From a virus (taxonomy: Duplodnaviria > Caudoviricetes): a DNA stretch of 64,000 nt. The DNA lies in IMG/VR virus record IMGVR_UViG_3300032321_001270, positions 1-64,000 of that record, one strand, 5' to 3'. This document shows, one piece after another, positions 3,018 to 27,114 of this stretch. The notes below the pieces were generated by a model, which had not been told where the DNA came from, made no database searches, and was given only the letters and a program-made list of their open reading frames with translations. Positions within the stretch are counted from its first letter, which is position 1, and each line of letters begins with the position of its first letter. The position numbers and the translations under genes were made by a program.

Positions 3018-3060
3018 GACTTTCTCCTTTGGGTTCTAATCGTTGCCGATTAGCTTCCGT

Positions 3061-4521: not shown

Positions 4522-4523
4522 AG

Positions 4524-5504: not shown

Positions 5505-5507
5505 GAT

Positions 5508-6887
5508 TTATAGCAACTCTCGTGCTTTGGTTTGAGCTTCAATGTTGCTCTTCAAACTCTCGGCGCGCAACTTTTCCATCTCAATCAGCTGCTTCACATC
5601 AAAGTCTGCGAGTTGGCCAGCTTCTAAACGTTTACGGAGCATGGCCTGCATGGCTGCGCCCGAACCAGTAAAATTTGGCGCAATTTCGGCAATCTGGTTG
5701 TAGGCCGAAGCGATCTCGTGGGGGTCGTAACCAGAAATAACCGGGTCGTTCAGGATAAGGTCGTTTAAAACTCCGCGCGACTTGATCTGCTGTAGCTTGT
5801 TTTCGTGGTCCGCATCCGACATGTTTAAGAACGCTTTACGTTTTTGACTTTGCGGATCTGTGGCCTTATCTTCCTGCGCACCCAACTCTGAGGCTAAACC
5901 GCCCGGGCTCATGATCTTGCCAAGATTCCCCATGGTTCCGCTATATGATGTCATCGGCGGGGCGCTGTTTGGTTTTTTTTTAACTACTTCCGCCACTTTG
6001 AGCGCTAACGGAGCTGTTCTGGGGTCGTGGAGGATGGAGCCAGTAACAACAGCCGGCGCCTCTTTTTTCACAGGCACAGACGATGTTTTTTGCGTGGCAA
6101 CCTTGTTTTGTGCGTTGTTATACAGGTCTACGGCGCTGATGACTTTTTCTACCAACGTTACAACCGGCAGGTTACCAAAGTAGTTCTCTTTGGTAGCCGC
6201 TTGTTTTTCAACGTACGGATAGACGGCCGCAACCTTCTTCAATACCGACACGCCCGTATCGCCTAACCGCAGGCCGACTTCGCGCACGGCGTCATTAAAC
6301 GACATGTTGCCCGGGACACGAAAATACTGGCACAGTTCTTCCATCTGGGCGGCAGCCTTCGTGTGCGCCGTGGTGGCCTGTCGGCGCAGTTCTTCAGCTG
6401 CGCGCTTTTCCGCCTGCAACTGGCTGTACATGCGTCGGGCGGCGGAGTGCTCATCACGCGGAGCCGGCGTAAACGTTTTCTCGGGTAACACAGCCCGGGC
6501 GGCGGCTGCCTTCTCAAGCTGCGTGTTATGACGCAAAATGAAACCCTTGGGCGATACGGCATATTCAGTAGAGATAACAGAGTTCCGCACAATCTCGGCC
6601 GATGTCTTTACCTGCGACGGATACAGCGCTGCCATAACAGCCTCTGCGTCCGCTAGTTTAAAATCTGCAGCCTTTTCAAGCGTGTCGTTGCCGTGCTCGC
6701 GTTGCTTGTTCGTGCGGCCGGTGTTGTAGGCGTGCACCATAAGATTGATGTGCCCGGCCGGAATGCTCGCTTCCGATGCGCTTTTAATAATGGCGGCATT
6801 CGGGTCAGCGCCCTCGTTTACAAGAGTCGCCGCACGCTCGATAGCGCCGATCAGTTTTTGCTCAGCTTCTTTACTTAGTGCCCGCAT
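5508..6887 (-). CDS. Hypothetical virion-associated protein with K-x-A motifs
   Basis: Helical; EKAA, KTSA, EKQAA; start re-called at MRALSK with GGAG RBS. Confidence 0.55.
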   Translation of the reverse strand: MRALSKEAEQKLIGAIERAATLVNEGADPNAAIIKSASEASIPAGHINLMVHAYNTGRTNKQREHGNDTLEKAADFKLADAEAVMAALYPSQVKTSAEIVRNSVISTEYAVSPKGFILRHNTQLEKAAAARAVLPEKTFTPAPRDEHSAARRMYSQLQAEKRAAEELRRQATTAHTKAAAQMEELCQYFRVPGNMSFNDAVREVGLRLGDTGVSVLKKVAAVYPYVEKQAATKENYFGNLPVVTLVEKVISAVDLYNNAQNKVATQKTSSVPVKKEAPAVVTGSILHDPRTAPLALKVAEVVKKKPNSAPPMTSYSGTMGNLGKIMSPGGLASELGAQEDKATDPQSQKRKAFLNMSDADHENKLQQIKSRGVLNDLILNDPVISGYDPHEIASAYNQIAEIAPNFTGSGAAMQAMLRKRLEAGQLADFDVKQLIEMEKLRAESLKSNIEAQTKARELL

Positions 6888-7818
6888 CGGTTTTCTCCGG
6901 GAAGTGCAGTTCTTGGATCGAGGCTGTATTCTGCAAAGAACCGCCAGCCGCAATAACCATCATTTCGTCGTTACGTAATTCTGCTGGCCCGTCATCAAAG
7001 GGTAACATTTTTATAGCTACCGAATCCAGTTTCGTCCCCACTTTAAACGGCAAGGACGACAGCATAGCCCCGATATTCTCGACGATAGTGGCGTGTGATT
7101 TAGAGGCGTTATCGCTGTTTTTCTCGATCTCTACATATTTTACAAAAGAATCGATCAGCGGTAACTGGGTATGAGTATTTACATTAATGCTGAGACTGGC
7201 AATGGCCGCTTTGTACTTCATGCAACTCACGGCCATGTCTTGGAAAAAGCCGGAGACGCCATCAGTACCATCCGGCCGAGCAATATCTGCGAACTTTTGG
7301 ATCACAGCGTTTAAAACGTGTGGCCCGCCCTTATACCCGAGCAGTTTCCACAAAAGGTCATAATGACGTTCCTGTAGCCCGCGGGTAACTGCGTCAGACA
7401 GCACAACGTTTATGATGTAATCCGGGTGTCTCAGTTTTTCCCGGACGTCAAAAAACGTGTTTGCGTACGCGCCCACAATTTCAGGGTTTGTGCCAAGTTT
7501 TTCGGCAATTTCGTCGTCTGACTCGCCCGCCAAGATGCGCGCTTCGATACCCCAACGTGTCGGCGCTTTTTCGTCCGACCAGATCGAATGCGCCCAAAAT
7601 AGGTCTCGGTCCCGCTGCAACATTGCGTACATCGCTTCGGGTCGACTGTTCGCGCGTTCAAAATGCCGCTTCAGTCGCACCGCTTTACGAATCCACGTAA
7701 ACCCGTCCGGCCCGTCAATTGCGCGGGACGCACGAAAACCGCCGCCGTCAATTTGTACAGCGCGCAACCAACGCCAGTGCGGAGCACGACGCGGATTGTC
7801 CCGCAGAGCGTTAAGCAT
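6871..7818 (-). CDS. Hypothetical protein
   Basis: Long ORF overlapping both neighbours; start re-called at MLNALR. Confidence 0.55.
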   Translation of the reverse strand: MLNALRDNPRRAPHWRWLRAVQIDGGGFRASRAIDGPDGFTWIRKAVRLKRHFERANSRPEAMYAMLQRDRDLFWAHSIWSDEKAPTRWGIEARILAGESDDEIAEKLGTNPEIVGAYANTFFDVREKLRHPDYIINVVLSDAVTRGLQERHYDLLWKLLGYKGGPHVLNAVIQKFADIARPDGTDGVSGFFQDMAVSCMKYKAAIASLSINVNTHTQLPLIDSFVKYVEIEKNSDNASKSHATIVENIGAMLSSLPFKVGTKLDSVAIKMLPFDDGPAELRNDEMMVIAAGGSLQNTASIQELHFPEKTDAGTK

Positions 7819-8872
7819 TTTGATCAACAAACCCGAAACAGACTGTGCAGTAATTTTCACTGACGGTGTAGTTAAACGTCACACTACTCATTGCGCCGTC
7901 GATGCGAATGATGTTGAAACCTTCTTCGCCGATAAATTGCGTGTACTGGAACTCCGGCCCTGTACCTACTGGATTTTGATATGTTGTTTCTCCGCCTGAC
8001 GCCCAAATCGGCGTAAACGGTTTTGGCGCGCCATTTTCGTCGAGCACAATTACCGTAACTGGCGTTCCGGCTTGACCAACACTCGCGAACGCGACTAGTG
8101 CGTCTGTGACAGGCGAACTAAACACCGCCGTAAACACACCGGCCTGTGTGTTTTTAACTTGCGTGCCAGTCGCTGGCACGCCATATTCTGCCGGGAAATT
8201 TGAAGCCGCGTACATGCCGGGGTGCGGCTCCATACCGCCGCCGGTCTGGGTAATCGCGACTGTGATGTTGTTCTGCCCAATTCCAGACGCCGTGGTGGCA
8301 TCTACGCTAAGCATTCTCATCCACTTGAAACCAGAGTCGCCAGTGCAAGAAAAGTCATCGCAAGTTGCTAACGGGTTGTAATTGTCGGCGGCTGGATTCA
8401 TGCAGCCATAGACGCACGGAATACATGACCCGTCGTCGCACGTTGCGTTGGGGTTGTAGTTAGTGGCCGTGTTATCCATGCAGCCATTAACACACGGCGG
8501 GCAAACCTGCTCAGCCGTAAATGGCGCAGGCCAAGTTACCAACCACGGCCGGGTCGCATAACTGTATGCCCGCGCAAGTTCTCCGTACGTCGCGTTTGTA
8601 TAAAGCCATACGCCCGTCTCATAGCGAACAACTTCATCGCCGTATTTATAAGTTTCTCGCCCCCACGGCGCGTATCCAATAGGAGAAAGAGTGCGCTCGC
8701 CCGCGACCCAGCCAGTCATTTTGACCGGAGCAGTTGACTCGTCGCAACACGAGTCGCCGCGGCAAAACACCAAAATATCGCCTACAAACACACGTTCAAC
8801 GTCGTCATCGCCTATTTTGATAGACGTGATATTAGCGCTGCCTATGTATGTATCGCTGTCTACTCTTGGCAT
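7811..8872 (-). CDS. Putative fibre/surface protein with two GCxD/N-xxA-xNYN-xxAT-CDD-SC repeats
   Basis: GCMDNTATNYNPNATCDDGSC followed by GCMNPAADNYNPLATCDDFSC; beta-rich C-terminal domain. Confidence 0.5.
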   Translation of the reverse strand: MPRVDSDTYIGSANITSIKIGDDDVERVFVGDILVFCRGDSCCDESTAPVKMTGWVAGERTLSPIGYAPWGRETYKYGDEVVRYETGVWLYTNATYGELARAYSYATRPWLVTWPAPFTAEQVCPPCVNGCMDNTATNYNPNATCDDGSCIPCVYGCMNPAADNYNPLATCDDFSCTGDSGFKWMRMLSVDATTASGIGQNNITVAITQTGGGMEPHPGMYAASNFPAEYGVPATGTQVKNTQAGVFTAVFSSPVTDALVAFASVGQAGTPVTVIVLDENGAPKPFTPIWASGGETTYQNPVGTGPEFQYTQFIGEEGFNIIRIDGAMSSVTFNYTVSENYCTVCFGFVDQNA

Positions 8873-8877
8873 AGCGA

Positions 8878-9195
8878 TTACCCGGAAACAATGTAGTACA
8901 CAGTTGCCGGGTCTTTAGTCTGCAGCGCGTTATAACCGGTTTGCGTAATTTTGACGATGTTTGTAATTACCGTTGCGCCCTGAATTTCGGCGACGTCGCT
9001 CTCTACGTGATTGTTATCCGCGCCGCCAATCTGCACAGCCGTTGTGTCTTCAAGCCCGGCATACAGTTTGTTTGCGTTTTCGTCGTACAGTATCTCGCCG
9101 GGCTGCACGTTGATCGGCGTCGGGTCTAACTCGCTAACAACGTCTCGGCGTCGATGCGGGAAATGCAGCGCGCGAAATACACGTGTGTCAGGCAT
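8878..9195 (-). CDS. Small tail-fibre-like module protein
   Basis: PGEILYDENANKLYAG (Mtd N-terminal-like) and TQTGYNALQTKDPATVYYI (common phage fibre repeat). Confidence 0.45.
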   Translation of the reverse strand: MPDTRVFRALHFPHRRRDVVSELDPTPINVQPGEILYDENANKLYAGLEDTTAVQIGGADNNHVESDVAEIQGATVITNIVKITQTGYNALQTKDPATVYYIVSG

Positions 9196-9210
9196 AGTAG
9201 CACTCCTTAC

Positions 9211-9630
9211 TTAGCGCAGCATTGGGGTTTCAACGGTAACGGTCAGCACGAAATCCTTAGAGCCGGAACCGTTCGGTTTGATCCACAGATATAAGAACCG
9301 CTGCGGATTTGACGGAGAACCGTCGCGGTTCAGATATGCCACGTTAATGTTGCTGTTTTCAGCAATCGCCACGACGTGCGGGTCAGATACAACATCGGCA
9401 AAATCGGCAAGGCTGAGAACATGAAACGCCTCGGCCGGCAGCGATGCGTTCGGTTCTGTCTCCTGATTACTTGAATACAGGTCGGCCTCAAACTTGTTGT
9501 TGCCGCCACTTGTTTGCACAAGTGCATAACCGCGCAGGATACCGCGATGCGGCATCTTTACCGGTACGATTGTTTCACTGCCGCTGGTAGCTGTGAATGT
9601 AGTTGTGCCCGACCAAATCGTGCTAGCCAT
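9211..9630 (-). CDS. Hypothetical beta-rich structural protein
   Basis: 139-aa ORF with RBS, within the operon. Confidence 0.5.
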   Translation of the reverse strand: MASTIWSGTTTFTATSGSETIVPVKMPHRGILRGYALVQTSGGNNKFEADLYSSNQETEPNASLPAEAFHVLSLADFADVVSDPHVVAIAENSNINVAYLNRDGSPSNPQRFLYLWIKPNGSGSKDFVLTVTVETPMLR

Positions 9631-9639
9631 ATGTCACCT

Positions 9640-12045
9640 TTAAGCGTTTGCAATAGCGCCAAGATCAATATCTTGCGCGGCCTCTTCCGGGTACGGCTCA
9701 ATCGTCTTTTGCTTGAGGAACAAGATAACGTCGCCGAGCATCTCGAACGCGTTGCGCAGCGAGTCTTCTAGTTCCGGCATATCAGACTTGCCGTACCGCT
9801 CAGCGAATCGATCGCCGTGCCAGTAGAACATGAACAGGATACGGCCGAGCTTGTCGAGGCCCTTGGTCAGCTCGCCCATGTAGCGATCAACAAGAGAGTC
9901 GTCGCGCACGGCGCGCAACATAGCGCCTACCATCGCGGTATCAAATACTTCTCTCTGCCCGCTGCTGGCGGCGTCAACAACGCTGCGTACGTCTTTCTGG
10001 TCGAGCAGCGTGTTCGGGTTGTAAACACTGCGGTCTGTTTGGCTAGCGCTCATACCCGGAACCGGCACGCCGACGTCGATGCCGAGTTGTGTCGGCACGT
10101 TGGCGCCCATGATTGTCTCGCCGCCCATCACCGGGCCCGGATCCGACGGGGCGCCCGGAGCGTCGTTGATCATCATCGGGCCGCCATACGGGTCGGCATA
10201 CTTTACGCGGCACTCAAACTTCCGCTTGGCAGACGCCTGCTTCAAGATCTCGCGGGCGGCTTCTTCGCGAAGGCCGTGGTGCTCAACCAGCGTCACCAGC
10301 GCCTTAATCGGGCTGAGGCCGGCTTCTTTGTTAATAGTGACTTCTGTGCCGTTGTGATACACAGTCAGCGAGGCGGTCTTGCTCATCAAAGCCAACTGGG
10401 CGTCGACAAGATTGCCGGGCATCAGGGCCGGCGGATCACTTTCGCCGCAACCGCACGCACCCTGATCTTCTGCGGTTTCTGCGTCGTCTTCGCCTTTGCT
10501 CACCTTGAGGAGCTTGAAACCTTCCGGCACAAAGATGTCGCCCATGCTCGCGCGCAGGCTGGAACCCTTCTTGCCGTTCAAGTGGATACGCACGCCGTCA
10601 CGCCACTTGTCATAGTTCAGCGGGTCGGTGTAGCAGCTGCCACACACGCTACCGCGCGCCGGGTACTTCGAGTGATCTTCTAGATGCACTTCATATACAA
10701 TGCTATCGTTCGCGTTGCCGTACTCTTTAATGACACGGAACGGGGCGGTGCAGTCACCACGCTTGCTGAGCGCAATGTAGCGAGCGTCTTTGCTAGGCAC
10801 GCTGTTCGCTTCCGGCAGCGCGTCGAACCACTTGTCGAAGTCTTCGCCTTCGATATGGGCAAGCGCAAACACTTGGTCAGCGCGTGTGTTTAACCAGTCG
10901 GGCTTGCCGTCGGTACGGACAACCGTGATGAAGTGCTCGCGCTTAGCAGCGCCTTGCGGGTGCACGGCGACGTAGCAGCGCTCAATATCGCCCGGCTTGA
11001 CGAGGATTTCGTACAGGCCGCTCTCGGTCGGATTAAACAGCTTCTTTTCGACCTGAATGTTGTACGGAATCGAAACGTTATCACGCTCACGCTGGTCTTG
11101 AATTAGCACACCGTCGCGCAGTAACTTTTCCTGATCTTCTTCCGTATACTCGTGCGGCGCCTTGGTCTGCACCGTTGCGTCATACGTGATGACCTTTAGG
11201 CTGGCTTGCGCGGCGGGCTTATTGGGCGCTTCGGACAGCACGCTGGCGATTTTGGTACTGGCAGCGAGTTCACGCTTCTTCGCTTCGGCCATCGCTTCCT
11301 TGATGATATCTAAACCATGGAATTCATCGATGGCGGAAGCGATCTGCGGAGCATGTTTGCAGGTGTTAATAAGCGTGCCGATCATCTGCAGACCGGCTTC
11401 TTTGAGGAACTTCTTCAGGTCGAGACCGGCGCCGATTTCCTGAAACGTCTGCTGCGTGTTTAGCGTGGCACTCTTGGCCAACGCAGGCATAGCGGCCGTC
11501 ATCATTTCCTTGAGGGTCGGTTGGGCGGATCCGAACTTAGCCGGGCTGCGGGAAAGCTGGGTAAAATCGGGCTGGCGCTGGCCGAGACCCGAAAGATTCC
11601 GCTCGACGCCGCTACCCAGAATGTTGGGCTTGCGGTTAACGAGGTAGTTAATCCAGTTTTCCTTGAGCGGCACGAACATGTCCTGATTCTTGATGTACAG
11701 GAGTTCGTGGCCCTTGAGGTCGCCGTTCAGAAAGAACACCGGCGCGTACAGCCAGTTCGAACCGACTTTGAACGCAAACACGCCGACAGCCTTAGTGTTC
11801 TCGCGGTTTCGGTCGAGGAGCTGGAAACCAATTTCGTGGTCGAGGAGCTTTGGGGCCGAGTCGCGGAGATAGGCGTGGGCCAGATTGCTAAAGGACTGCT
11901 CGAAAGAAGTGTCGTCGCCCTTGCCGCCTAAATCGGCATATTTGGTCTGGGTCCGATCGTAGGACCGCATGACGTTGAGCAAGTGCTTAACAGACGACTC
12001 TTTAGCTTTTTTGTTATACACGGCCAGCCTCCATGCTGCGCTCAA
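9640..12045 (-). CDS. Large hypothetical virion-associated protein with K-x-A motifs
   Basis: 801 aa; KYAD twice, KIAS, KTAS; GGAGG RBS. Confidence 0.55.
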   Translation of the reverse strand: MSAAWRLAVYNKKAKESSVKHLLNVMRSYDRTQTKYADLGGKGDDTSFEQSFSNLAHAYLRDSAPKLLDHEIGFQLLDRNRENTKAVGVFAFKVGSNWLYAPVFFLNGDLKGHELLYIKNQDMFVPLKENWINYLVNRKPNILGSGVERNLSGLGQRQPDFTQLSRSPAKFGSAQPTLKEMMTAAMPALAKSATLNTQQTFQEIGAGLDLKKFLKEAGLQMIGTLINTCKHAPQIASAIDEFHGLDIIKEAMAEAKKRELAASTKIASVLSEAPNKPAAQASLKVITYDATVQTKAPHEYTEEDQEKLLRDGVLIQDQRERDNVSIPYNIQVEKKLFNPTESGLYEILVKPGDIERCYVAVHPQGAAKREHFITVVRTDGKPDWLNTRADQVFALAHIEGEDFDKWFDALPEANSVPSKDARYIALSKRGDCTAPFRVIKEYGNANDSIVYEVHLEDHSKYPARGSVCGSCYTDPLNYDKWRDGVRIHLNGKKGSSLRASMGDIFVPEGFKLLKVSKGEDDAETAEDQGACGCGESDPPALMPGNLVDAQLALMSKTASLTVYHNGTEVTINKEAGLSPIKALVTLVEHHGLREEAAREILKQASAKRKFECRVKYADPYGGPMMINDAPGAPSDPGPVMGGETIMGANVPTQLGIDVGVPVPGMSASQTDRSVYNPNTLLDQKDVRSVVDAASSGQREVFDTAMVGAMLRAVRDDSLVDRYMGELTKGLDKLGRILFMFYWHGDRFAERYGKSDMPELEDSLRNAFEMLGDVILFLKQKTIEPYPEEAAQDIDLGAIANA

Positions 12046-12102
12046 ATAATGGCCCGGTATTAATTTACCGTGCCGAAGTCTCTATATCGTACAAAAATAG
12101 CC

Positions 12103-13983
12103 TCAAGGCTTCCACCCGCTTGTTGTCCCGGTCACGCCAAACTGATCGCCCTGCGCTAATGCCGGGACATAACTACTGCCAGCCGCGTCGCTACTTAACC
12201 CGCGCTGGACGCTGTTCATAAGTCCCTTTTCCTGATATGAACCCAACATGCGGGTCATCCAGTCAGGGTCGTTCGAGATATTGGCCATACCACGAACCAT
12301 TTCGGGCTGGAACGGCGGCGGTTCTTTATGCGCCTGTACCGTTTTGATGCCGTACTTGTTTAAGTTTGTCAGCACGTTTTTACCGATCTTCGTGCCGATT
12401 GAATAGTGCAAAACCGGTTTTTCAAGATAATGCCCGGATAATGTCTGCGGCGCACCGGAGACGCTACCTTCGCGCGGGGTCCAGTTTCGTTCTAATGTTG
12501 AATACGGCACGATGTCGTCAGGGGCATAATCACCGTACTCGTCGGTCAGGCGTACGTGGTTTACAAGCCCGCGCGCCAACAGCTCAATATTACGGCGGTG
12601 AGCGGAAATACCGCTGTTGCCCATAACCTGCCGCATAGCGTGTACAAAGTAACGCCGCCCCTCGCCGACGCCTTTGTGTTTGACAATTTCCGACGGGTTA
12701 GGCATGCCGTCAGAGATCACATCGCCGGCTTCGAGTTCGTCGCCTTTTTTAACGGCCAGCTCGCGCTCGGTCGGAATGTAGTGATCTTGCCCGTTGATTT
12801 GCACATAGTGCCCGCCCTGCGCCGCCGGACGAACTTCCTGCACGCGACCGTCGGTCTGCGCGTGCGCTGCGCCGCCGGGATACTTCTTCGGCACCTGCAC
12901 AAGCGCGTTCAGGGCTTTAAACCCAGAGATCGCGCCTGCACCGCCGACACCGCCCGAGTGCTTTGAGCTAATCTGGCTTTGCGTAACAGGCTCGGAAAGA
13001 GCTTGTGCCGCCGCAATGCCTACATAGTCCCCGGCCGGCGGTAGCCGGCCTTTTTCGCGGTATCCGACGTCTTTTGCGTAAACACCGCCGTCGCCGGGAC
13101 CACCGACGATAGGGCTGCGCACTAAGATATCTTTAACGCCCATCTCTTTGATGTCGCGCAAGATCTTCGGTGTCAGTACGGTGTTACGCTTATACGGCCC
13201 GATAGCGCGAGACAGCAACGCGCCCTCATTGTCAGCGTCATCGACATCGCTCGGATAGCCGCGTTCTTCCGACTCAGCTTTTTGGGTCTCGTCGGTGTCG
13301 TCATCGTCGTCGGACGTGACAAGCAGGCGGTGCGTCATCTGCGCTAGCTGCTTGCCGTAAAAACCGGCGTCAGCGGTCGCAGTCTTCAAGTCAATCACAC
13401 CCTTGCGCGTGCCGAATGCTCCGGCAAAGTACTCAACGGGGCGAAGACCTTGGCTGTAGCCGCGCAACACCGGAATTGGTATCGGGTCGCCGCGGTGGTC
13501 AAGATACTGCATGTCCGCGCCGATAATCGAGTTCAGCTGAAACTTGTTGCCGACGCCAGCGCCCGCAATTTGATGCACCAGAGGATTATCTTGCCCCTCG
13601 GCTTCTTTGTAAACTTTGTCAAGCAGTTCTTGCTGCGCACCCTGCGCTAACTCAAGCAATTTTAAGTTTCGCTGTTTCTCGTCAAGCCGCTTGTCAGCGA
13701 GGATGTCTTGCATCTGCCGATGAACCCGCAGTTGAACATTGCGCACAGCCAGCGTTGGGCGAATGTCTTTCAGGCCAAACGACAAACCGTTTGTGGAATA
13801 CCCGGCATCGCGGCCAACGTCATGAAGTTTTTTCATAACTTCACGATATTTTTCAGGATGTCGTTTGGCTAGTTCTGTTGCGACACCGGACATACTCTTT
13901 TTGGTCAACACACGATCGTAGTCGCGCATGTCTGGAGGAAGCGCCTCGTTGATCATGAGTTGTCCAAGCGTCGTTTTAAGCAT
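12103..13983 (-). CDS. rpoC: Phage RNA polymerase beta' subunit, C-terminal half (bridge helix, trigger loop)
   Basis: TTLGQL start; GYSQGLRPVEYFAGAFGTRKGVIDLKTATADAG (bridge helix); GIAAAQALSEPVTQ (trigger helix); GDVISDG...RRNIELLARG; start re-called at MLKTT. Confidence 0.9.
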   Translation of the reverse strand: MLKTTLGQLMINEALPPDMRDYDRVLTKKSMSGVATELAKRHPEKYREVMKKLHDVGRDAGYSTNGLSFGLKDIRPTLAVRNVQLRVHRQMQDILADKRLDEKQRNLKLLELAQGAQQELLDKVYKEAEGQDNPLVHQIAGAGVGNKFQLNSIIGADMQYLDHRGDPIPIPVLRGYSQGLRPVEYFAGAFGTRKGVIDLKTATADAGFYGKQLAQMTHRLLVTSDDDDDTDETQKAESEERGYPSDVDDADNEGALLSRAIGPYKRNTVLTPKILRDIKEMGVKDILVRSPIVGGPGDGGVYAKDVGYREKGRLPPAGDYVGIAAAQALSEPVTQSQISSKHSGGVGGAGAISGFKALNALVQVPKKYPGGAAHAQTDGRVQEVRPAAQGGHYVQINGQDHYIPTERELAVKKGDELEAGDVISDGMPNPSEIVKHKGVGEGRRYFVHAMRQVMGNSGISAHRRNIELLARGLVNHVRLTDEYGDYAPDDIVPYSTLERNWTPREGSVSGAPQTLSGHYLEKPVLHYSIGTKIGKNVLTNLNKYGIKTVQAHKEPPPFQPEMVRGMANISNDPDWMTRMLGSYQEKGLMNSVQRGLSSDAAGSSYVPALAQGDQFGVTGTTSGWKP

Positions 13984-13984
13984 G

Positions 13985-14233
13985 TTATTTTGGCCACACG
14001 ATATTCTGCATCGACTTTGGAGCAAAATCCGACACTACGACAGTTTTCTCGATACCAAGCGCGCGCAACAGTGAATGAAAATCTTTTTCTCCGGGCGTTG
14101 AGTACACAATCGCTTCGTCGACTTGAATAGCAACAAAAATCGGGTTGCCAAGATCGTCTTCGATAACGACGCTGTGCGCTTTTCGCTCAGATGGTTGAAG
14201 ACTGTGTTGGGTTTTAACCAGCATTGCCCGCAA
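13985..14233 (-). CDS. Hypothetical protein between the RNAP genes
   Basis: 82-aa ORF tightly coupled to both neighbours. Confidence 0.5.
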   Translation of the reverse strand: MRAMLVKTQHSLQPSERKAHSVVIEDDLGNPIFVAIQVDEAIVYSTPGEKDFHSLLRALGIEKTVVVSDFAPKSMQNIVWPK

Positions 14234-14942
14234 GACTCCGAATCATAGCTGCGACTGCATTCGCCTTGATTTGCATATCGGTCGGGGCAAACGGGTCGCT
14301 GCTCAATGACGCCGACACTGGTTTGCCGATATACGACGCAGACTTTTCAGGTTCAGAAGATTCCCACCACGCTGCCTTGGCGTTCGGATCTTGTGGCGCT
14401 GCGTTCGGGGGCATCGGACCGCCCGGGGGAAGCGGCCCACCCGGAGGTTGCATGCCACCCTGCGCGTTCGGGTCTTGCGGCGGAGGCGCCATTGGACCGC
14501 CGGGGAGCGCGGTTTCAGCAGGCGGGGCGCCAGTCGTGCCGGGAGGCAGAACCAGCGACTCCGGCGGAACCTGCACGCCCATCGCGTTCATAATTGCCGT
14601 CAGCTGCTGCTGCATGTTGTAAAGACGGTAGTCGAGCATTTGCATCATTTGCTCGGGTTTTAACTTTTGTTGCACGCCAGCAGCGGGGGATGCGCCCGGA
14701 GCGGCGGGTGCGGCGGGCGCTGCTGGAGTAGCAGGCTGCACCATCCCCATAGCCGCGGGATCCATCGGTGGCGCCGCTGCAGCAGCAGCGGGATCGGCCG
14801 GAGGAGCAGCGCCCATGGCAGCTGGATCCATCGGCGGCGCACCACCGGCGGCAGCGGGATCCACCGCCGCTCCGGGCACTAAAGCGGACTTTTCAAATCG
14901 CGCCTTGGCAAGCGCAATCAGTTCGGGATTGACGGTGAACAT
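14214..14942 (-). CDS. Pro/Ala/Gly-rich low-complexity protein between the RNAP genes
   Basis: 242 aa; FEKSA and PEKSAS motifs; PPMDPAAMG repeats; GGAGG RBS. Confidence 0.55.
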   Translation of the reverse strand: MFTVNPELIALAKARFEKSALVPGAAVDPAAAGGAPPMDPAAMGAAPPADPAAAAAAPPMDPAAMGMVQPATPAAPAAPAAPGASPAAGVQQKLKPEQMMQMLDYRLYNMQQQLTAIMNAMGVQVPPESLVLPPGTTGAPPAETALPGGPMAPPPQDPNAQGGMQPPGGPLPPGGPMPPNAAPQDPNAKAAWWESSEPEKSASYIGKPVSASLSSDPFAPTDMQIKANAVAAMIRSLAGNAG

Positions 14943-14963
14943 ACAACCTCCATGTTGAATAGG

Positions 14964-17900
14964 TTAGGTATTATCTTCCACAATATGAACCGGGGTGTCT
15001 ACCTCGATTTCACCACGCCGGTATGCCTGCATTGCGTCTTGCTTGCTGCGATATACCCGCGGTTTGGACTTGTTATTAATCCGACTGGACGCCACATAGA
15101 GCCCAGTTTGATAGTCTTTGTTCGGTACGTAGTGCGCCCGGAACGTCGAGGTTGCAAACAGGTTTTTGCTCGGCAGCATCTTCTCGACGGCTTCCTTGGC
15201 CGCATCTTCTGTGCTGGGAACGTGATACTGCATCGCATCGCCGTCGAAGTCGGCGCCAAAGCCTTTCGTGATCACGGGGTTAACTTCCATGACCTTGTTC
15301 TTCGTCAGCTTTGGATAGAACGCCATCATGCCGTATCTATGTAAAACAGGCGCGCGATTAATAACAATCGGACGCGCACCCATCTGTCGATCCAGTTCTG
15401 CCGCGGCTTCTTTGTTCTTGTCCTCAACGGCTTGCATAGCTTGCATCCGGGGCAAGCCGCGGCGAACTAAACCACGCACAACAAACGGCTTGTAAATGTC
15501 CCACGCCTTCTCTTCCGGCAGGGCAACCTCGTCCATGTCCAGATCGGGGTTGGGGGTGATGACAGCCCGGCCGACAAGATCGACCGTGGAGCTAAGAAGC
15601 TTGCGCTGTACCGTGCCGTACTTGGGCGATGTACCAAACACGTGGCGCAGAAAACCCTTAACGTTGCGCTCGACGTTTTTTGGCTGTTGAGGGTCGCCCA
15701 AACCAGTCACGGCTTTTAACGAGTCATATACCCCAAGGCGCTCTTCGCTGTAATCGGTCAGCGCGCCGGACGCGTCTTTGAGGGCGCCGTTTGCGTCCAG
15801 CAGTTCTTTGTATAAGTAATTTGCATCAGCTACGAGCGGCAGCTTCTTGTTACCCATTGTGCTGACGGGCCGGAAAAGGGGCGGCAGCACTGGTACTTTG
15901 TTGATCATCCAGTCTTTGGGCTGCACGCCGGTTGCTTCAGCGCTCTTCAAAAAACCAAGCCGCCGCACAGCAGCATCACGCAGGGTTTTTCTGCCGGATT
16001 TGATATCTTCACGGGCCTGCTCGATTGCTTTGGGAAGGTTAATCCGCTCCAGAGCTTCTTTGATCGCGCTCGGGCCTGTCTTGTCACCCAGCGACTCTTG
16101 TCCGGCGAGAACGGCTCGGAAGCGTTTTTCCGTCAGGCCCAACACCCGGCGAATCGGATCTTCCATCACGGGATTTGGCATCGGTTCGTGAAGCGTGATC
16201 TTGCTCCACCGATTGCCGCTATGGCCGCCCGTTAATGTCTCATCGAACAGGCCGCCTGCGATTGGTTTGAGCCGGCCTTTCCAATCGACTGTTTCAGAAT
16301 TCTGGAGTTCACGGTTGCCGGCCAGCGCATCGACGTCCTTATCGGTCATCGCCATGATGTTGGACTTGGATCCGCTGCGCACGACGTTAATCCCAGACGC
16401 GCGCAACTGATTGACGAACTTCTCGTAGACGTGCGGGACTTTTGGCAGCGGCGGGGTATATCCAGCCATGAACTGCGACCAGTACTCTGGGTTAGCTTGG
16501 CCACGAACCATCTTGGCGTCGCGGATAACCTTGCCGGCGCCGTGGCTAAGCAACGCGCCAAGGTCAAGCATGCCGACACGCTTGGCACCTTCAGAGCCGC
16601 CCTTGGCCGGTGTGCCTTCGGCGGTATACGCGCCCATCGCCCGGCCTTGCGCCTTGGACTCACTCGTGTGGTGCAGCTTCATGAAGAAACGATTGCCGGT
16701 CAGAACGCCGGGGATCTTACGACCTGTCGTGGGGTCAATGATTTCTTCGGTGTCAGAAAGCCCGTGCTTGGCGAGTTCCTTCTGGGCCATCTCAATTAGG
16801 TCGGTATTGTTATCAAAATCTTTAAGCTTGAACGGTTTGCCTGTTTTTGCCGCAATTTTGCCTAGCGCAGCCTCAATAACCTGCGCCGGATTAATACGGC
16901 TGATCAAACCCAGCGGACTGACAAGTACTTCATATGGGTTGCCGTCTTTGTCATGCGGCATCTCTTCGTCTTTTACGATCTCAGATACAACGCCTTTATC
17001 GCCAAAGCGGCCGGTGAGTTTATCGCCCACGTCCATCTGCGCCTGATTTTTGACGACAACGCTGACGCCCTTCTTGGTGTGCATCACATCGGTCACGATA
17101 CCGGGCGAATGGTGGTCCCACGTCACAGTTTCATTCGTAAAACTACCCGCCCGACCACGATGCACTTTGCCGTAAACCGTGTCTTTCTTTTTGGCAACGA
17201 GCACCAGCGGGTCACCAAAGTGAACTTCTGTGCCTTTTTTAATCGCGCCGACGTCGTCAAAATTTTCAAGTTTCTTCTTGTCGTACTCCGCGGGAAATAA
17301 ACTCACGAACGCCTTCTTGCCAACGTGAGTATTATCATCCCATTCGGCTTCATGCTGGTACATGTGCTCAGACGTCAGGCGCTTGGCGGCAGACTCAGAG
17401 ATCACCACGGCGTCTTCGTAGTTCTTGCCGCGGAACGGCACATAGGCTGTGCGCAGGTTCAGCCCCAGAGCCGCGCTGCCGTTCGAGTCTGTAAAGTTTG
17501 AGCGGGCCAGCAGCTGTCCGGGTTCGACTACATCGCCGGGTTTGACCAGCGGCGTCTGATGCAAGAATGTTTTGCGGTTGTACGGCATCTCGTTGTACAG
17601 ATCGATCGTCTTCTTATTGCCGTCCTTGTCGCGCAGCACAATTCCGTCCGGCGTAACATCAACGACCTGCGAACGGTGGGTAGCACGGGTAGCACCCAGT
17701 TTTTCGCCCATCTCGTCTTCATGCGAAACGCTAGGGTCATCAGCTTTAGCCGACTGTACAAGCGGCGCTTCGGCGCCGACAAGGGGCAGGGCCTGTGTAA
17801 ACATTCGACTACCCATGATCACGCGGTGGCCTTTGATCATAGTTTTGATCGGCACCATGTTGGACAGCGTTGAGAACGTCGAGTCCATGTTCGGCAAGCT

Positions 17901-19379
17901 GAACTGCGCGTCTTTGCGCGGCACATACTTGAGACGGCCGTTGACGAGCGCGGCCACGACGGGAAGCTTGTTGTCTTCTTCGCCCGGGAACACAAGCGGC
18001 GTGTCAGCTAACTCTTGCGGGGTTTTGTACACGCGCTCACCGGTCTTCATGTCGACAACGGGCGTATAAACCTTGCCGTCCGCACCCTTCATGGCGCCGC
18101 GGGCAAACCGCATATCGACACCGACCTTGCCGCTTTCCGGCGTGCGCAAATAGTCGATAAATCCAAGATGGCTGGGCTGTACGCTACGCGACTCAGCCGG
18201 CACAGCGTCGAGCGAACCTATGCCGCCCTCGCCCATGCGAGTTACACGAGTCTGATGATCAAAAATCTCAGCTGGGTTGATTTCTTCTAAGCTCGACCCC
18301 AACCCGCTGCCGATCAACGCGGCCGAAATAGCTTTGTCAAACACACCGCTGGGAATATGGTCGATGGATTTTCGTGCCGTGGCTTTCCATAGCAACTTGT
18401 TTAATCCCTGCCGGTCTTTGGTGAAACGCTCGGCAATCAAGTCTTCGGGGCCGACCACCGACTGATACACCATGTTGTCGCGGTCATCGCTCTCGGCTTC
18501 GCGACGATTCACTGCGATTAATTTCTTAGTAATCGCCAGAATCGTGTCCGGCGTCATGTTCTTGTGCTCGGCGCCAAGCGTTCGGCGAGTGACTTCGGGG
18601 TCGAGTTCGGTCTTGGCAAACTCGTCGGCGATGGCTTTGGCTTTGACGAGTGCGTCAGCGCCGGCAACAGGTTTGTTTACAAGTCGCGCGTAAAGTTTGT
18701 CGAGCGTGCCGGCGTCGCCCTTTTCCATATTGACGGCGGTGATCTCGTTGCCCCACGACGCGCGAATGTCTTGATCCGACACGCCCATGCTCTTGAGCAA
18801 CGGCATGAGCGGGATCTGCGCCTGACCGATGCTAATTTTAAACACGCCGGTTTTTGGGTCGAGAAAGTAGCGATGTGAGCGGCCTTTGCCGGGCAATGTG
18901 TTAACGTGTGCTTCAATCTCGCCGTTGTCTTTCTCGCGGGTGAACACGCCCGGGCGTAACCGCATCTGGTGCGCGAGTGTGTATTCCACGCCGCCGTTGA
19001 CGAACGTGCCGGAGTCTGTGAGATACGGGACATGCGCAATAGTCGCGCGCTTCTGGCCGACCGATTCACCGGTTTTGTTATCAATAAGTGTCCACGTGCC
19101 CTGCAGTCTGCGGGCAAGCGTGCCGCGCGATAGCACAGCTTTCTTTTGATCAGCCCTTGTAAATCTCTCCGGGCCAGAGTATCCAACATCTTGCAACTGA
19201 ATCGTATAAAGATCGTTCTGTAGGGGTTTTAAACCCTGCGCGCTGGTCAGCGCCTGATTGAAAATATTGTCGCGCATTGCGTCTACATCGCCGAACGTGC
19301 GCATAGACGGCACAGGCTGCGGGCCGGGCTGAAAAACCGGCTGCGGCGCTTTCAAAGGCGGCAGGTCAGGCGTCGGCAT
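14964..19379 (-). CDS. rpoB: Phage RNA polymerase: complete beta fused to the N-terminal catalytic half of beta'
   Basis: Beta motifs VPYLTDSGTFVNG, RTPESGKVG, GKNYEDAVVIS, GDKLTGRFGDKGVV, MKLHH; then beta' motifs PVLPPLFRP, VDLVGRAVI, NRAPVLHR and GADFDGD; 1471 aa with no internal stop. Confidence 0.93.
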   Translation of the reverse strand: MPTPDLPPLKAPQPVFQPGPQPVPSMRTFGDVDAMRDNIFNQALTSAQGLKPLQNDLYTIQLQDVGYSGPERFTRADQKKAVLSRGTLARRLQGTWTLIDNKTGESVGQKRATIAHVPYLTDSGTFVNGGVEYTLAHQMRLRPGVFTREKDNGEIEAHVNTLPGKGRSHRYFLDPKTGVFKISIGQAQIPLMPLLKSMGVSDQDIRASWGNEITAVNMEKGDAGTLDKLYARLVNKPVAGADALVKAKAIADEFAKTELDPEVTRRTLGAEHKNMTPDTILAITKKLIAVNRREAESDDRDNMVYQSVVGPEDLIAERFTKDRQGLNKLLWKATARKSIDHIPSGVFDKAISAALIGSGLGSSLEEINPAEIFDHQTRVTRMGEGGIGSLDAVPAESRSVQPSHLGFIDYLRTPESGKVGVDMRFARGAMKGADGKVYTPVVDMKTGERVYKTPQELADTPLVFPGEEDNKLPVVAALVNGRLKYVPRKDAQFSLPNMDSTFSTLSNMVPIKTMIKGHRVIMGSRMFTQALPLVGAEAPLVQSAKADDPSVSHEDEMGEKLGATRATHRSQVVDVTPDGIVLRDKDGNKKTIDLYNEMPYNRKTFLHQTPLVKPGDVVEPGQLLARSNFTDSNGSAALGLNLRTAYVPFRGKNYEDAVVISESAAKRLTSEHMYQHEAEWDDNTHVGKKAFVSLFPAEYDKKKLENFDDVGAIKKGTEVHFGDPLVLVAKKKDTVYGKVHRGRAGSFTNETVTWDHHSPGIVTDVMHTKKGVSVVVKNQAQMDVGDKLTGRFGDKGVVSEIVKDEEMPHDKDGNPYEVLVSPLGLISRINPAQVIEAALGKIAAKTGKPFKLKDFDNNTDLIEMAQKELAKHGLSDTEEIIDPTTGRKIPGVLTGNRFFMKLHHTSESKAQGRAMGAYTAEGTPAKGGSEGAKRVGMLDLGALLSHGAGKVIRDAKMVRGQANPEYWSQFMAGYTPPLPKVPHVYEKFVNQLRASGINVVRSGSKSNIMAMTDKDVDALAGNRELQNSETVDWKGRLKPIAGGLFDETLTGGHSGNRWSKITLHEPMPNPVMEDPIRRVLGLTEKRFRAVLAGQESLGDKTGPSAIKEALERINLPKAIEQAREDIKSGRKTLRDAAVRRLGFLKSAEATGVQPKDWMINKVPVLPPLFRPVSTMGNKKLPLVADANYLYKELLDANGALKDASGALTDYSEERLGVYDSLKAVTGLGDPQQPKNVERNVKGFLRHVFGTSPKYGTVQRKLLSSTVDLVGRAVITPNPDLDMDEVALPEEKAWDIYKPFVVRGLVRRGLPRMQAMQAVEDKNKEAAAELDRQMGARPIVINRAPVLHRYGMMAFYPKLTKNKVMEVNPVITKGFGADFDGDAMQYHVPSTEDAAKEAVEKMLPSKNLFATSTFRAHYVPNKDYQTGLYVASSRINNKSKPRVYRSKQDAMQAYRRGEIEVDTPVHIVEDNT

Positions 19380-19382
19380 GGA

Positions 19383-20255
19383 TCACCCCGCCTGCGCTTG
19401 TTCAGCCCGTTGCTTTAGCGCGACGATTTCGTCTGGGTCGACGTACGCCGGCAGAATACCGGCGATGCGCGCCTTCGACTTCGCGGCCTCTTCGACCGCT
19501 TTAGCCTTCGATCTCTCACGCGCTCGGTCGTACATGACCTTAGCAGCAAGACCGCCGAGTCCAAGTCCCGCGCCGACATACATGCTGCCCAAAGCCGCTG
19601 GTGTACGTTTAGCCACGTCGTATGTGCTCGTCAGCCAATCAAGCAACGCTGTTTTTTCTGTGGCAGCTTTTTCGCTGGCAGAATCGTATACGTCATCGAG
19701 TTTTTTTGCGGGCTCGCCACCGACCAAAGCGTCGTAATATTCTTTTTCAGCGGCGTCGATTTCCTGCTGGCGCTCTTGCTTTTTTTTACGGTTGTGAAGC
19801 GCTTCGATCAGTTTGTAACCGCCGTAAGCGCCAAGTCCGCCAGCCGCCACCGTAGCCACGTTACCGAAAGACGATCGCCACGCGTTGGGATCATAAGAGT
19901 TTGGTTGTTTTGCCGTCTGTGGTGTAAACGGGCGCACAAAACTCATCAACGAATCCGGCAAAGACTTACCGACGCCCTCACTGATGCTGTCGTATAGTCC
20001 AGCTATTTTTGTCTCAGTGATCTTGGGTGTCTCTTCCTCTTCTTCTTCAACTTTGGGCTGATTTAACGCCTGCGAAAGACCGCGAGCCAAGTAATACAAA
20101 CTAGCGGCACCAGCGCCAAGCCCCACACCACCGATGCCACGGCGCAAAATACGATCGCCCCAGAAACGCTGGTAATCTCGGTCCGTAGGTTGACCAACAG
20201 CGGTGGCTGGCTGGGTTGATATCGCATTGGCAGCTGTTTTTTCTGATGTGGTCAT
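19383..20255 (-). CDS. Virion-associated protein with Gly-rich hydrophobic segments
   Basis: EKTAA, KIAG, EKAATEKTA; three GxGxG hydrophobic stretches. Confidence 0.55.
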   Translation of the reverse strand: MTTSEKTAANAISTQPATAVGQPTDRDYQRFWGDRILRRGIGGVGLGAGAASLYYLARGLSQALNQPKVEEEEEETPKITETKIAGLYDSISEGVGKSLPDSLMSFVRPFTPQTAKQPNSYDPNAWRSSFGNVATVAAGGLGAYGGYKLIEALHNRKKKQERQQEIDAAEKEYYDALVGGEPAKKLDDVYDSASEKAATEKTALLDWLTSTYDVAKRTPAALGSMYVGAGLGLGGLAAKVMYDRARERSKAKAVEEAAKSKARIAGILPAYVDPDEIVALKQRAEQAQAG

Positions 20256-20266
20256 GTGTGCGCTCG

Positions 20267-20611
20267 TTACTTGGGCGGGATCATGCCATAAACCTGCGCC
20301 CATTCTAACCAAACGCGCAGGTGATTATGCTGGTCGTCCCAGTTATCCGTTCGTTTTAATAGGCGATACCAGCCGTTTACTATCTTATCATTTATCTCGT
20401 CAAACTCGGCTTTTTGCTGAGGATCCCACAAATCAAACATCTTGGATTTGAAGTCATACTGGATATCGATGTTTTCCAGTTCATCTTGCTTTAAATCGGC
20501 TCGACTTGCGCCGCCGATGACTGGAAAGCCGTCTAGCGTTCCGGGCCAGTTCAGCTGGGCGTTATTGTGCTTTTCGCCGCCGATTTCGCCATGATATTTG
20601 CGCAGGCTCAC
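20267..20611 (-). CDS. Hypothetical protein
   Basis: 114-aa ORF within the operon. Confidence 0.55.
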   Translation of the reverse strand: MSLRKYHGEIGGEKHNNAQLNWPGTLDGFPVIGGASRADLKQDELENIDIQYDFKSKMFDLWDPQQKAEFDEINDKIVNGWYRLLKRTDNWDDQHNHLRVWLEWAQVYGMIPPK

Positions 20612-25362: not shown

Positions 25363-25811
25363 CAGTTCCCCGTCCGCTCAGCGCGCATCTTCTCAACCGC
25401 GACGGCTTCCATGTAGCGGTACCGGGCGTCGATCATCTGAGCACGAAGTTCAGTGCGGCCGGCGAGATACTTCCAGATCAGCGCGCTGTTAAGCACGACA
25501 ATCTGCGTGGCGCCGACAATCGCGGTGATCGCCTTTGTCAGCGTCTCGGCTTGCGACGAATCCACCCAGCCAACAAGTACGCCAACCGCAATCAGGTTCG
25601 TCACGGCGCCAACAGCCATCGTCCAGAATTCCGGCGTCAGCCAGTTGTTCGTATCCACGTTGGCATCGTCAACCGCGGCATTTAAAACGCGCAGTTCTTC
25701 GCGCACAGTTTCAACACTCTTTTTCGTAGCCATAGTAACTCCTTGAGGTTGGGGTACGGGCGTATTGTAGCTAGCCATTAAGTTTGTGCAAGATAGATTG
25801 TCATCGGCCAA
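25362..25811 (-). CDS. Holin-like two-TM membrane protein
   Basis: WLTPEFWTMAVGAVTNLIAVGVLVG and second helix AITAIVGATQIVVL. Confidence 0.45.
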   Translation of the reverse strand: MADDNLSCTNLMASYNTPVPQPQGVTMATKKSVETVREELRVLNAAVDDANVDTNNWLTPEFWTMAVGAVTNLIAVGVLVGWVDSSQAETLTKAITAIVGATQIVVLNSALIWKYLAGRTELRAQMIDARYRYMEAVAVEKMRAERTGN

Positions 25812-26844
25812 AGAGGCTCGGGACCATTGCGTGCATCATGCCGCCCCACAGCCCAAGCTCTTGTAATTTATTCTGTCCTTCCGGCGTCAGACCCGCTAAG
25901 GCAGATAACGCCTTGCCGGCAATATTTGCTGTCGCTAATCCAACGCCGGCTGAAGCAATCCCCCGTACAACGTCAATGGGTCGAATAATCGGGGAGCCAA
26001 CGCTTGTGCTGATCCCAGTCATGAGACCAGTTGTCGCGGCGGCAAACTGCGGCGGCGTGTGGTTCTGGAAACCGTGATACAACCCCCGGTTAACGTCCTG
26101 CCACGCTGCGCTATTGAACTGCGGCACCGATACAGTTGGTGCAAACATCGGCTCATTTAAAAACGCACCTGTTTCACCGCCAGACGGGATGGGGTATGAC
26201 TTTTTCTCGCGAGCTTCCTCGTATGGATAGACCACAGGGGTTTTGTTATTTGTAAACAGACCCGCCAGCATGCTGGTGCGCAACGCCTTAGCGTTGGCGT
26301 ACGAGTTCAACCCAGCCACACCCAACCCACCAAGCGCGCCAATCATGCCAAGCGTCCGACGCAGTTTTCCACGCTGAATATACCGAGACGGAAATAGCTG
26401 TTCGGCGAGCATACCGGCGCCGTAGCCCGCGCCGCCGGCCAGCAAACCGGTCATGATGCCGTTCGAGAGCGGTGTCGGGCCGCCGAGCATCTTATTTCCG
26501 GCGTTCCAGACTGTCGGCAATCCCGGAACGAGCGAGCCGCGCTTGACCAAGATCTCTTCATTCCAGTCGGGGTGCACGGCGTTGTAAGAAACGCTGGCTA
26601 AAATACGTCCGTCGGCGTAAATCTCTTGTTCGTACGCAGCATAAGCGTTTTTATCCAGCTGTTCAGCAGAATACAACGTGATACCGTTGAGTTCTGGCAT
26701 CCACGTCGCCGCGGTTGTCGCAAGCAACCCTGATTTGAGTGCCGCTTGCTCGTGCGCCATCTTTACAACAAGCGCCTGCGGCAGCACTTCGGCAATACGC
26801 GTCGGTACAAGCTGCCACTCGGTGATAGTCGGGGTTGCAGTCAT
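25801..26844 (-). CDS. Virion-associated protein with Gly-rich hydrophobic hairpins
   Basis: VKMA, DKNA; GLLAGGAGYGAGML and MIGALGGLGVAGL. Confidence 0.5.
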   Translation of the reverse strand: MTATPTITEWQLVPTRIAEVLPQALVVKMAHEQAALKSGLLATTAATWMPELNGITLYSAEQLDKNAYAAYEQEIYADGRILASVSYNAVHPDWNEEILVKRGSLVPGLPTVWNAGNKMLGGPTPLSNGIMTGLLAGGAGYGAGMLAEQLFPSRYIQRGKLRRTLGMIGALGGLGVAGLNSYANAKALRTSMLAGLFTNNKTPVVYPYEEAREKKSYPIPSGGETGAFLNEPMFAPTVSVPQFNSAAWQDVNRGLYHGFQNHTPPQFAAATTGLMTGISTSVGSPIIRPIDVVRGIASAGVGLATANIAGKALSALAGLTPEGQNKLQELGLWGGMMHAMVPSLFGR

Positions 26845-26847: not shown

Positions 26848-27114
26848 TTAGTGAATGAGCGACAGTACAAAACGTAAAAACAGTGAGAACCACGCAAGGC
26901 AGCCGCTGATAGCGAAAAAAACGATGACACTGCTCGCACCGACAACGCGGCCAAGCTGCTGGATTTGAATGTTTTTGAGCAGATTCCACGCCTTGAGGTA
27001 GTCAATGGCGCCCGGTTTCTTGGCCGGAACTGGTTCAGGCGCAGGCGCGGGCGTATCGGGCGTTTTTTTGCCGCCCAGTAATTCGCGCAGTTTATCGAGG
27101 AACGGAGTGGACAT
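26848..27114 (-). CDS. Small membrane protein
   Basis: Start re-called at MSTPFL; hydrophobic C-terminal half. Confidence 0.45.
   Translation of the reverse strand: MSTPFLDKLRELLGGKKTPDTPAPAPEPVPAKKPGAIDYLKAWNLLKNIQIQQLGRVVGASSVIVFFAISGCLAWFSLFLRFVLSLIH

Follow-up and report, generated by a model that had tools for sequence, protein, structure and literature searches.

A tailed-phage RNA polymerase with beta fused to the catalytic half of beta' and the remainder of beta' encoded by a separate gene

The two large subunits of bacterial-type RNA polymerases, beta and beta', are rearranged in several described systems. In Helicobacter and Wolbachia, RpoB and RpoC are fused, the C-terminus of beta leading directly into the N-terminus of beta'. 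The whole of beta' is contained in this chain, and the enzyme is a cellular one with alpha and omega. In cyanobacteria and plastids, beta' is broken in the linker that follows the catalytic barrel (RpoC1, the gamma chain, and RpoC2). The cyanobacterial enzyme has beta as a separate chain and possesses alpha, omega and the zinc sites. Phages of the phiKZ/AR9 type encode their own polymerases, which are devoid of alpha and omega and also have a beta' that is split after the barrel (PMC7598289, PMC7824862). Their beta is distributed over 2-3 chains, nothing is fused, and there are two polymerase sets, one of which is virion-packaged. They have an SNF2-type helicase but no sigma70-family factor. 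For Salmonella phage Arash (OQ632216), the chains have been called simply beta and beta', and their partition is not mentioned (PMC10585845). Here, we analyze a stretch of 64,000 nucleotides (the window), which represents the first 64 kb of the 205,188-bp IMG/VR virus record IMGVR_UViG_3300032321_001270 (Duplodnaviria; Caudoviricetes), rated complete by CheckV. Judged by their sequences, two genes on its minus strand encode a bacterial-type multisubunit RNA polymerase core with an unusual chain cut: beta is fused to the catalytic half of beta', and the rest of beta' is encoded separately. Coordinates refer to the window, except for those marked G000, which are positions on the whole 205-kb record.

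The fused gene (14964-19379, minus strand) is a single open reading frame (ORF) of 1471 residues without interruption. The second gene was found at 12103-14025 (minus strand), with 640 residues when counted from a TTG codon. A first-pass annotation, made from the sequence alone, had already placed the two ORFs here, and it had proposed that beta is fused to beta' through the DFDGD motif, with the bridge helix and the trigger loop on the second gene. Pfam, PDB and the alignment with the E. coli subunits all agree with this partition. The second gene in fact starts at ATG 13983 rather than at TTG 14025, given that relatives begin at this ATG and that the stop codon of the preceding ORF is located 1 nt upstream. 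The gene thus extends over 12103-13983 (minus strand) and codes for 626 residues (beta'-C). The 14 residues that are added by the TTG start contain the only two cysteines of this ORF.

Pfam assigns Rpb2 domains 2, 3 and 6 to residues 147-919 of the long chain (180 bits for Rpb2_6) and Rpb1 domain 2 to residues 1324-1399; Rpb1 domain 5 is assigned to the short chain. Among the PHROGs, the long chain matches a beta family (~1190 aa) and the front of a beta' family (~1216 aa), and the short chain matches the back of the same beta' family. In a sequence search against PDB, residues 59-1021 of the long chain correspond to nearly the whole of bacterial beta, and residues 1074-1467 correspond to beta' 142-540. 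The short chain, from residue 16 on, corresponds to the C-terminal half of beta'. The boundaries were set by a MAFFT alignment of the concatenated phage chains with E. coli RpoB and RpoC. Beta covers residues ~59-1003, and the N-terminal half of beta' (beta'-N) covers residues 1004-1471, the end of the long chain being equivalent to E. coli beta' residue 568. The second chain opens with MLKTTLGQ, which is equivalent to E. coli beta' 569-576 (E. coli TTVGR being 572-576).

Both catalytic double-psi barrels are on the long chain. GRFGDKGV (16989-17012) aligns with E. coli GRHGNKGV, which holds the two catalytic lysines, and the lysine motif GxxGxKG is present. The catalytic loop of beta', GADFDGDAM, with its Mg-binding aspartates, is encoded at 15231-15257 (GADFDGD being residues 1375-1381). 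The bridge helix (13345-13416) and the trigger loop (12949-13011) are both in the beta'-C gene, which also carries the TTLGQ motif. In the trigger loop, the His is kept, while Met, Arg and Phe are changed. Both zinc sites of beta' are lost. The first zinc-binding domain (Cys70/72/85/88 in E. coli) is cleanly deleted, leaving a gap of 33 residues in comparison to E. coli (16182-16256). At the second site, which is in the beta'-C gene (13288-13317 and 13060-13107), all four cysteines are replaced, in part by a poly-Asp run. Neither chain contains a cysteine.

In the rifampicin-pocket and flap-tip regions (residues ~355-385 and ~725-745 of the chain encoded at 14964-19379, minus strand), the pocket is unlike that of E. 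coli at several contacts (for example, D516 is replaced by E and S531 by T; H526 is kept), and the flap tip lacks 8 residues. The response to the drug and the docking of sigma region 4 may differ from those in E. coli.

The beta/beta' junction is encoded at 16335-16406. LRASGINV (IRSLGINI in E. coli) represents the C-terminus of beta. It is followed by a linker (VRSGSKSN) and, ~10 residues later, by the N-terminal motif of beta' (IMAMTDKD), the start of which corresponds to approximately residue 20 in E. coli. Residues 860-1471 were modeled with AlphaFold2 on the basis of 41 homologs; the model has a mean predicted local distance difference test score (pLDDT) of 85.6 and matches cyanobacterial gamma and plastid RpoC1 best in fold. 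The junction is modeled as a tight beta-hairpin (pLDDT 85-95). This bears on the option that the long ORF is a polyprotein, with the prohead protease or another protease cutting at the junction so that separate beta, beta'-N and beta'-C chains result. The short and polar linker (RSGSKSN) would be compatible with such processing. We nevertheless consider it very unlikely, since a junction of only ~10 residues that is modeled as a hairpin is not an exposed loop, since the present phage, Arash and Vibrio phage D69 have no cleavage motif in common, and since a relative with a broken gene has flanking split-intein halves that would restore the continuous chain (see below).

A collection of 5.8 billion proteins contains more than 120 clusters with 76-100% identity to the fused chain. 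All have ~1455-1485 residues, except for some with ~1800. When residues 860-1471 were compared to 1.84 billion representatives (50% identity level) and the best 150 matches were considered, all 150 of these clusters (46-63% identity) were found to span the junction. In nearly all of them, the match runs to their own C-terminus and stops at the position of the split, and their lengths range from ~1450 to more than 3000 residues. In IMG/VR, the second chain is encoded at 68 loci, of which 67 reach upstream. In each of these 67, the fused gene is found 0.9-5.3 kb upstream of beta'-C, has the same orientation and stops at an identical residue. The start position of beta'-C is the same across the related IMG/VR loci. 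In GenBank, the layout occurs in Arash (gp206 with 1525 aa and gp216 with 606 aa) and in the Vibrio phages D69, D181 and D148, the matches covering 96% of the fused chain at 32% identity. At the DNA level, a megablast search of the locus against deposited phages gave no match.

A lost stop codon or a frameshift between an rpoB-like and an rpoC-like gene, introduced upon sequencing or assembly, had been named in the first-pass annotation as a finding that would refute the fusion. We found nothing that speaks for this artefact. The same continuous ORF recurs in hundreds of assemblies that are independent of each other, as well as in phage isolates, with the junction kept over an identity range of 32-100%. 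The chance that the fusion is an artefact is thus negligible.

The layout had not been recognized at first. This is correct as far as publications are concerned: a beta/beta'-N fusion is not described in the jumbo-phage reviews of 2020, 2021 and 2026, in the Arash paper, or in other literature accessible by full-text search. However, it is already contained in GenBank, in the four phages listed above, and in well over 150 metagenomic clusters. The GenBank genes are labeled only as "beta", "beta-prime" or hypothetical. The chain partition is therefore undescribed in the literature found, yet present in hundreds of environmental phages and in a few cultured ones.

Arash, D69, D181 and D148 share with the present phage the beta/beta'-N fusion, the position of the split (E. 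coli beta' 564-568) and the deletion of the zinc-binding domain. For Arash and D69, the same junction and the same zinc-domain deletion are combined with a split at E. coli 564-567. Homologous sigma factors and SNF2 helicases are also shared, and the polymerase genes are upstream of the capsid module. The Arash-type enzymes differ in that identity is only 32% for chain 1 and 24-25% for chain 2, in having ADYDGD as the catalytic motif, in having kept the cysteines of the second zinc site, and in having an adjacent portal gene. In Arash, nine genes are located between those for the two chains. In a tree of beta' (IQ-TREE, LG+C20), a 100/100 branch separates 14 sequences with the fused/split layout from those of three bacteria and of two phages that have an ordinary beta'; the sample is small, branches are long, and the bacterial sample is restricted to these three sequences. 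The tree is consistent with a single origin of the layout, the case for which is carried mainly by the shared structural characters.

In comparison to cyanobacteria, the position of the break is similar but not identical. The cyanobacterial break is ~20-60 residues downstream of the present one, as bracketed from PDB coordinates (the gamma chain extends ~60 residues past the end of chain 1, and RpoC2 residue 83 is equivalent to residue 98 of chain 2). The TTxGR motif stays on gamma (RpoC1) in cyanobacteria, as had been stated in the first-pass annotation. In the present phage, the break precedes TTLGQ, and there is no free-standing gamma, as beta'-N is fused to beta. The chain also does not contain a complete beta', as it does in Helicobacter, but stops at E. 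coli beta' residue 568.

The sequences of phiKZ/AR9-type polymerases are far more divergent (22% identity, E value 4e-7). A split beta, two polymerase sets and the lack of a sigma70-family factor, which are typical for phiKZ, are not found here. It had been assumed that phiKZ-like phages split both subunits at other sites. This holds for beta, which is split there as well, but hardly for beta'. The end of the beta'-N gene in Staphylococcus phage SA1, which is phiKZ-like, is only ~26 residues before the present split, and the beta' split of phiKZ has been described as coinciding with the cyanobacterial one (Sokolova et al. 2020). Three lineages thus have their break of beta' in the ~100 residues that follow the barrel. 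The genes for beta-C and beta'-N of Staphylococcus phage vB_StaM_SA1 abut, with overlapping stop and start codons (825-3757), and their order is that of the fusion. If one stop codon were lost, a junction similar to the present one would result.

The mReC phages (Weinheimer and Aylward 2020, PMC7481178) are tailed phages with a bacterial-type polymerase but with separate, unsplit beta (~1150 aa) and beta' (~1400 aa). They were selected by requiring two proteins of at least 800 aa, a rule by which the present family would be missed. Vibrio phage 1.031.O and Rhizobium phage RHph_Y65 also have a separate beta of ~1150 aa and an unsplit beta' (~1130-1400 aa across this group). The polymerase of crAss-like phages, which is virion-packaged, and YonO resemble the present enzyme in having both barrels in one polypeptide. 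However, they lack detectable full-length homology to beta/beta' and do not have a separate chain with the bridge helix and the trigger loop. Moraphages and PaBG were also considered as descriptions of the lineage and were rejected: moraphages have no polymerase, and the PaBG paper describes only sigma factors.

The complete record has one match each for the beta and beta' families, and no paralog was detected by phmmer. The two-chain enzyme is the only detectable RNA polymerase of this genome. A T7-like polymerase gave no Pfam match in the genome, which is a weak test because the control genomes were equally silent. For alpha and omega (PF01000, PF01193, PF01192), a search of the 205-kb record with a cut-off of E<=1 gave no match, whereas matches were obtained in every control genome. 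The phage core may use alpha and omega from the host. That the window itself is devoid of alpha and sigma genes had been stated correctly at first pass; a sigma gene is located outside of it.

This gene (G000 183119-183973) codes for a sigma70-family protein of 284 residues. Its match to Sigma70_r3 exceeds the Pfam threshold, its alignment with sigma70 covers regions 2-4, and its identity to Arash gp10 is 30% (E value 3e-19). The sigma gene occurs once per record in 5/5 relatives, including those with ~50% polymerase identity. A homolog of a second Arash sigma factor, gp196, was not found in the genome. In addition, an SNF2-family helicase of 720 residues is encoded at 42719-44881 (minus strand). 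It is homologous to Arash gp217, the gene for which adjoins that for beta'-C in Arash. The helicase is likely a partner of the polymerase.

We infer that the sigma70-family factor serves the two-chain core. It might instead redirect the RNA polymerase of the host, as is the case in jumbo phages without a polymerase of their own, and the phage core would then depend on another, unrecognized initiation factor. Sigma factors that serve the host core are found in many large phages (PMC7824862), and phiKZ-type polymerases use factors without sequence relation to sigma (PMC13282480). Also, the flap tip and the zinc-binding domain, which in bacteria contact sigma or promoter DNA, are altered here. 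Still, this alternative appears unlikely, given that the sigma factor co-occurs with the polymerase in Arash and in every relative checked, that it is free of cysteine like the polymerase, and that Arash gp10 was found in phage particles with 100% coverage.

A first indication for virion packaging comes from the proteome of Arash particles that were purified on a sucrose gradient. The fused chain, gp206, has the highest spectral count (3516), followed by gp216 (1210), the helicase gp217 (1148) and the sigma factor gp10 (467, with 100% coverage), so that all four are among the most abundant proteins of the particles (PMC10585845). From these counts and the protein lengths, we calculate ~2.0-2.4 spectra per residue for each of the four proteins, compared to ~4.3 for the capsid protein. 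Such similar values fit a roughly equimolar complex that is present in many copies in Arash.

Gene order provides a second indication. Polymerase, gp218-like and gp222-like virion proteins, the capsid gene and the tail genes follow each other as in Arash, in the present phage across the ends of the record. The gene downstream of beta'-C (9640-12045, minus strand) codes for 801 residues and is a weak homolog of D69_0266 and of Arash gp218, which is a virion protein (PMC10585845). It is present in every related locus that extends that far. A homolog of the Arash virion protein gp222 (3061-4614, minus strand) links the polymerase block to the capsid/tail module, with the capsid gene at G000 203876-204817. 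The suggestion that the polymerase is encoded among head genes is thus supported by synteny, as the polymerase genes are ~12 kb upstream of the major capsid gene and the homologs of this block in Arash are virion proteins. It is not supported by the neighbors as such: when ten neighboring ORFs were searched against Pfam and PHROGs, no named family and only one PHROG of unknown function were found, and the portal gene is 75 kb away.

A third indication is the absence of cysteine. There is none in the 2097 residues of the polymerase, compared to 1.55% genome-wide (P ~6e-15), and none in the sigma factor (284 residues) and the helicase (720 residues). The environmental relatives are likewise free of cysteine, while Arash and D69 retain the zinc-site cysteines. 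This is consistent with, but no proof of, proteins that have to survive outside of the cell. Among the 83 ORFs of the genome with at least 250 residues, 13 lack cysteine altogether, among them a protein of 1560 residues and the ORF immediately upstream of the polymerase. Apart from the polymerase, cysteine-free ORFs are found on the minus strand of the window at 4524-5504, 19383-20312, 25801-26844, 27092-28534, 41848-42759 and 42719-44881 (the helicase), and at G000 70634-72784, 86793-88751, 143185-144129, 185573-186466 and 186931-191613. Such ORFs may point to a group of proteins that are packaged or ejected.

Considering the Arash proteome, the gene order and the absence of cysteine, packaging of the two-chain polymerase in the virion of the present phage is probable. 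The enzyme could alternatively be made only after infection and transcribe middle or late genes like the non-virion polymerase of phiKZ, in which case the Arash signal would represent carry-over of a very abundant cytoplasmic complex. The "structural" list of Arash is rich in metabolic enzymes, purification was by sucrose gradient only, and carry-over has been raised by the authors. Moreover, with only one polymerase in the genome, the enzyme must act after infection too, unless the host enzyme takes over. We regard this alternative as rather improbable. A gp206 count that is the highest of all Arash proteins, with similar values per residue for gp216, gp217 and gp10, is difficult to reconcile with carry-over; in both phages, the polymerase genes belong to a structural block that is located upstream of the capsid gene; and an ordinary cytoplasmic enzyme would hardly be expected to be strictly free of cysteine, as polymerase, sigma factor and helicase are.

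As a whole, we consider the following explanation to be probable. The phage possesses a two-chain bacterial-type core, which would be packed into the capsid together with the sigma factor and the SNF2 helicase, be injected and start phage transcription. In this core, chain 1 (1471 residues) carries both double-psi barrels of the active site in one polypeptide. Chain 2 (626 residues) contributes what remains of the cleft and, with the bridge helix and the trigger loop, the mobile catalytic parts. The covalent link between beta and beta' would take over the role of the alpha dimer as assembly platform, and the split would fall into a break-tolerant linker on the surface, which follows the beta' barrel. 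Cyanobacteria and phiKZ-like phages have their breaks at a distance of no more than some tens of residues from this split. The enzyme, the sigma factor and the helicase would be made late, packed into the capsid and injected along with the DNA, so that phage transcription could begin without the host polymerase.

Several points weigh against this explanation. The present phage is uncultured, and particle data come from Arash alone. The particle proteome of Arash comprises 116 of its 272 proteins, including ribonucleotide reductases and RNA ligases, and its authors themselves allow for carry-over from the lysate (PMC10585845). The portal gene adjoins the polymerase gene in Arash and D69 but is found at 92.6 kb in the present record. 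The shorter flap tip and the missing zinc-binding domain leave both the phage core and the host core as candidate partners of the sigma factor. With only one polymerase in the genome, the enzyme may also act in middle and late transcription. Finally, the beta' tree has its long branches and its three bacteria.

Two ORFs are located between the polymerase genes on the minus strand. One (14214-14942) codes for a Pro/Ala-rich protein of 242 residues without known family, the other (13985-14224) for 79 residues when counted from its ATG. They are tightly coupled: the start of the 79-residue ORF overlaps the end of the 242-residue ORF, and its stop codon is 1 nt before the ATG of beta'-C. The 242-residue ORF has clear homologs at the same place in closer relatives, while homologs are weak, partial or undetected at ~50% polymerase identity. 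The 79-residue ORF has homologs only in closer relatives and is mostly missing in distant ones. We do not count these ORFs as polymerase subunits because of this restricted distribution.

Some relatives show further variation of the fused gene. The homologs with ~1800 residues carry an intein of 345-347 residues (from Cys1 to GN, followed by S), which is inserted between YLRTPE and SGKVG. This site (beta residues 410-420; 18120-18152 in the window) is highly conserved. The intein is present in relatives P0022, P0031, P0061 and P0083, and the copy in the window is devoid of it. A search for short proteins that match beta'-N revealed additional breaks within beta in some relatives, all of which have the beta/beta' junction fused. 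In a JGI contig of 238,853 bp, the polymerase gene is fractured (3263-9737). Its beta part ends in the N-terminal half of an intein (~103 residues, CFVGDTLV...TRNHEF). An ORF of 547 residues without known family follows, and the next polymerase gene starts with the C-terminal half of an intein (37 residues, VYDITVADTHLYVV...VVSN, followed by S), from which it continues with beta from residue 932 onwards and with beta'-N. This looks like a natural split intein, and trans-splicing would rebuild the fused chain.

In another JGI contig (226,073 bp; 4487-9989), an in-frame intein of the LAGLIDADG type is found after beta residue ~790. The frame is broken five codons past the end of the intein, and an ORF of 662 residues restarts at a position equivalent to residue 807 of the window protein. 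ORFs of ~662-669 residues recur across many independent contigs. This form may be a true variant with three chains, may involve recoding, or may be an error that occurred repeatedly. In Vibrio phage D181 (OZ196140), the fused gene contains a group I intron (1731-2642; RF00028, 100.7 bits, E value 1.4e-26), which is followed by a homing endonuclease gene; the exons are annotated as separate hypothetical proteins. Comparable elements were also considered for the break between beta'-N and beta'-C. A split intein at this position was rejected, since both chain ends abut contiguous beta' sequence without extra residues. An intron remnant between the two polymerase genes was rejected because there is no Rfam match in 11900-19600.

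The characterized phage multisubunit polymerases, those of the phiKZ and AR9 types, are highly diverged, have no sigma factor and consist of four or five pieces. The present family has a clearly bacterial sequence and a co-occurring sigma70-type factor, and yet it lacks alpha, omega and zinc and has its two large subunits repartitioned. It thus offers a natural test of the role of the alpha platform and of the zinc sites. As a third independent break in the same ~100-residue linker of beta', the split shows where a cut in this subunit is possible. Members of the family abound in metagenomes, with the polymerase labeled only as "beta", and would escape surveys in which two long subunit genes are required. 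Arash, which is grown on Salmonella Typhimurium, is a tractable system for studying how a sigma-type holoenzyme might be packaged and ejected. As a serious possibility, rather than as our expectation, we put forward that a large, globally distributed clade of phages with genomes of ~180-240 kb delivers a self-contained transcription machine from the capsid, consisting of a two-chain core without alpha, omega, zinc and cysteine, its own sigma70-family factor and an SNF2 helicase. If true, this would be the first sigma-dependent virion polymerase and the smallest known bacterial-type polymerase, in which the link between beta and beta' stands in for the alpha platform.

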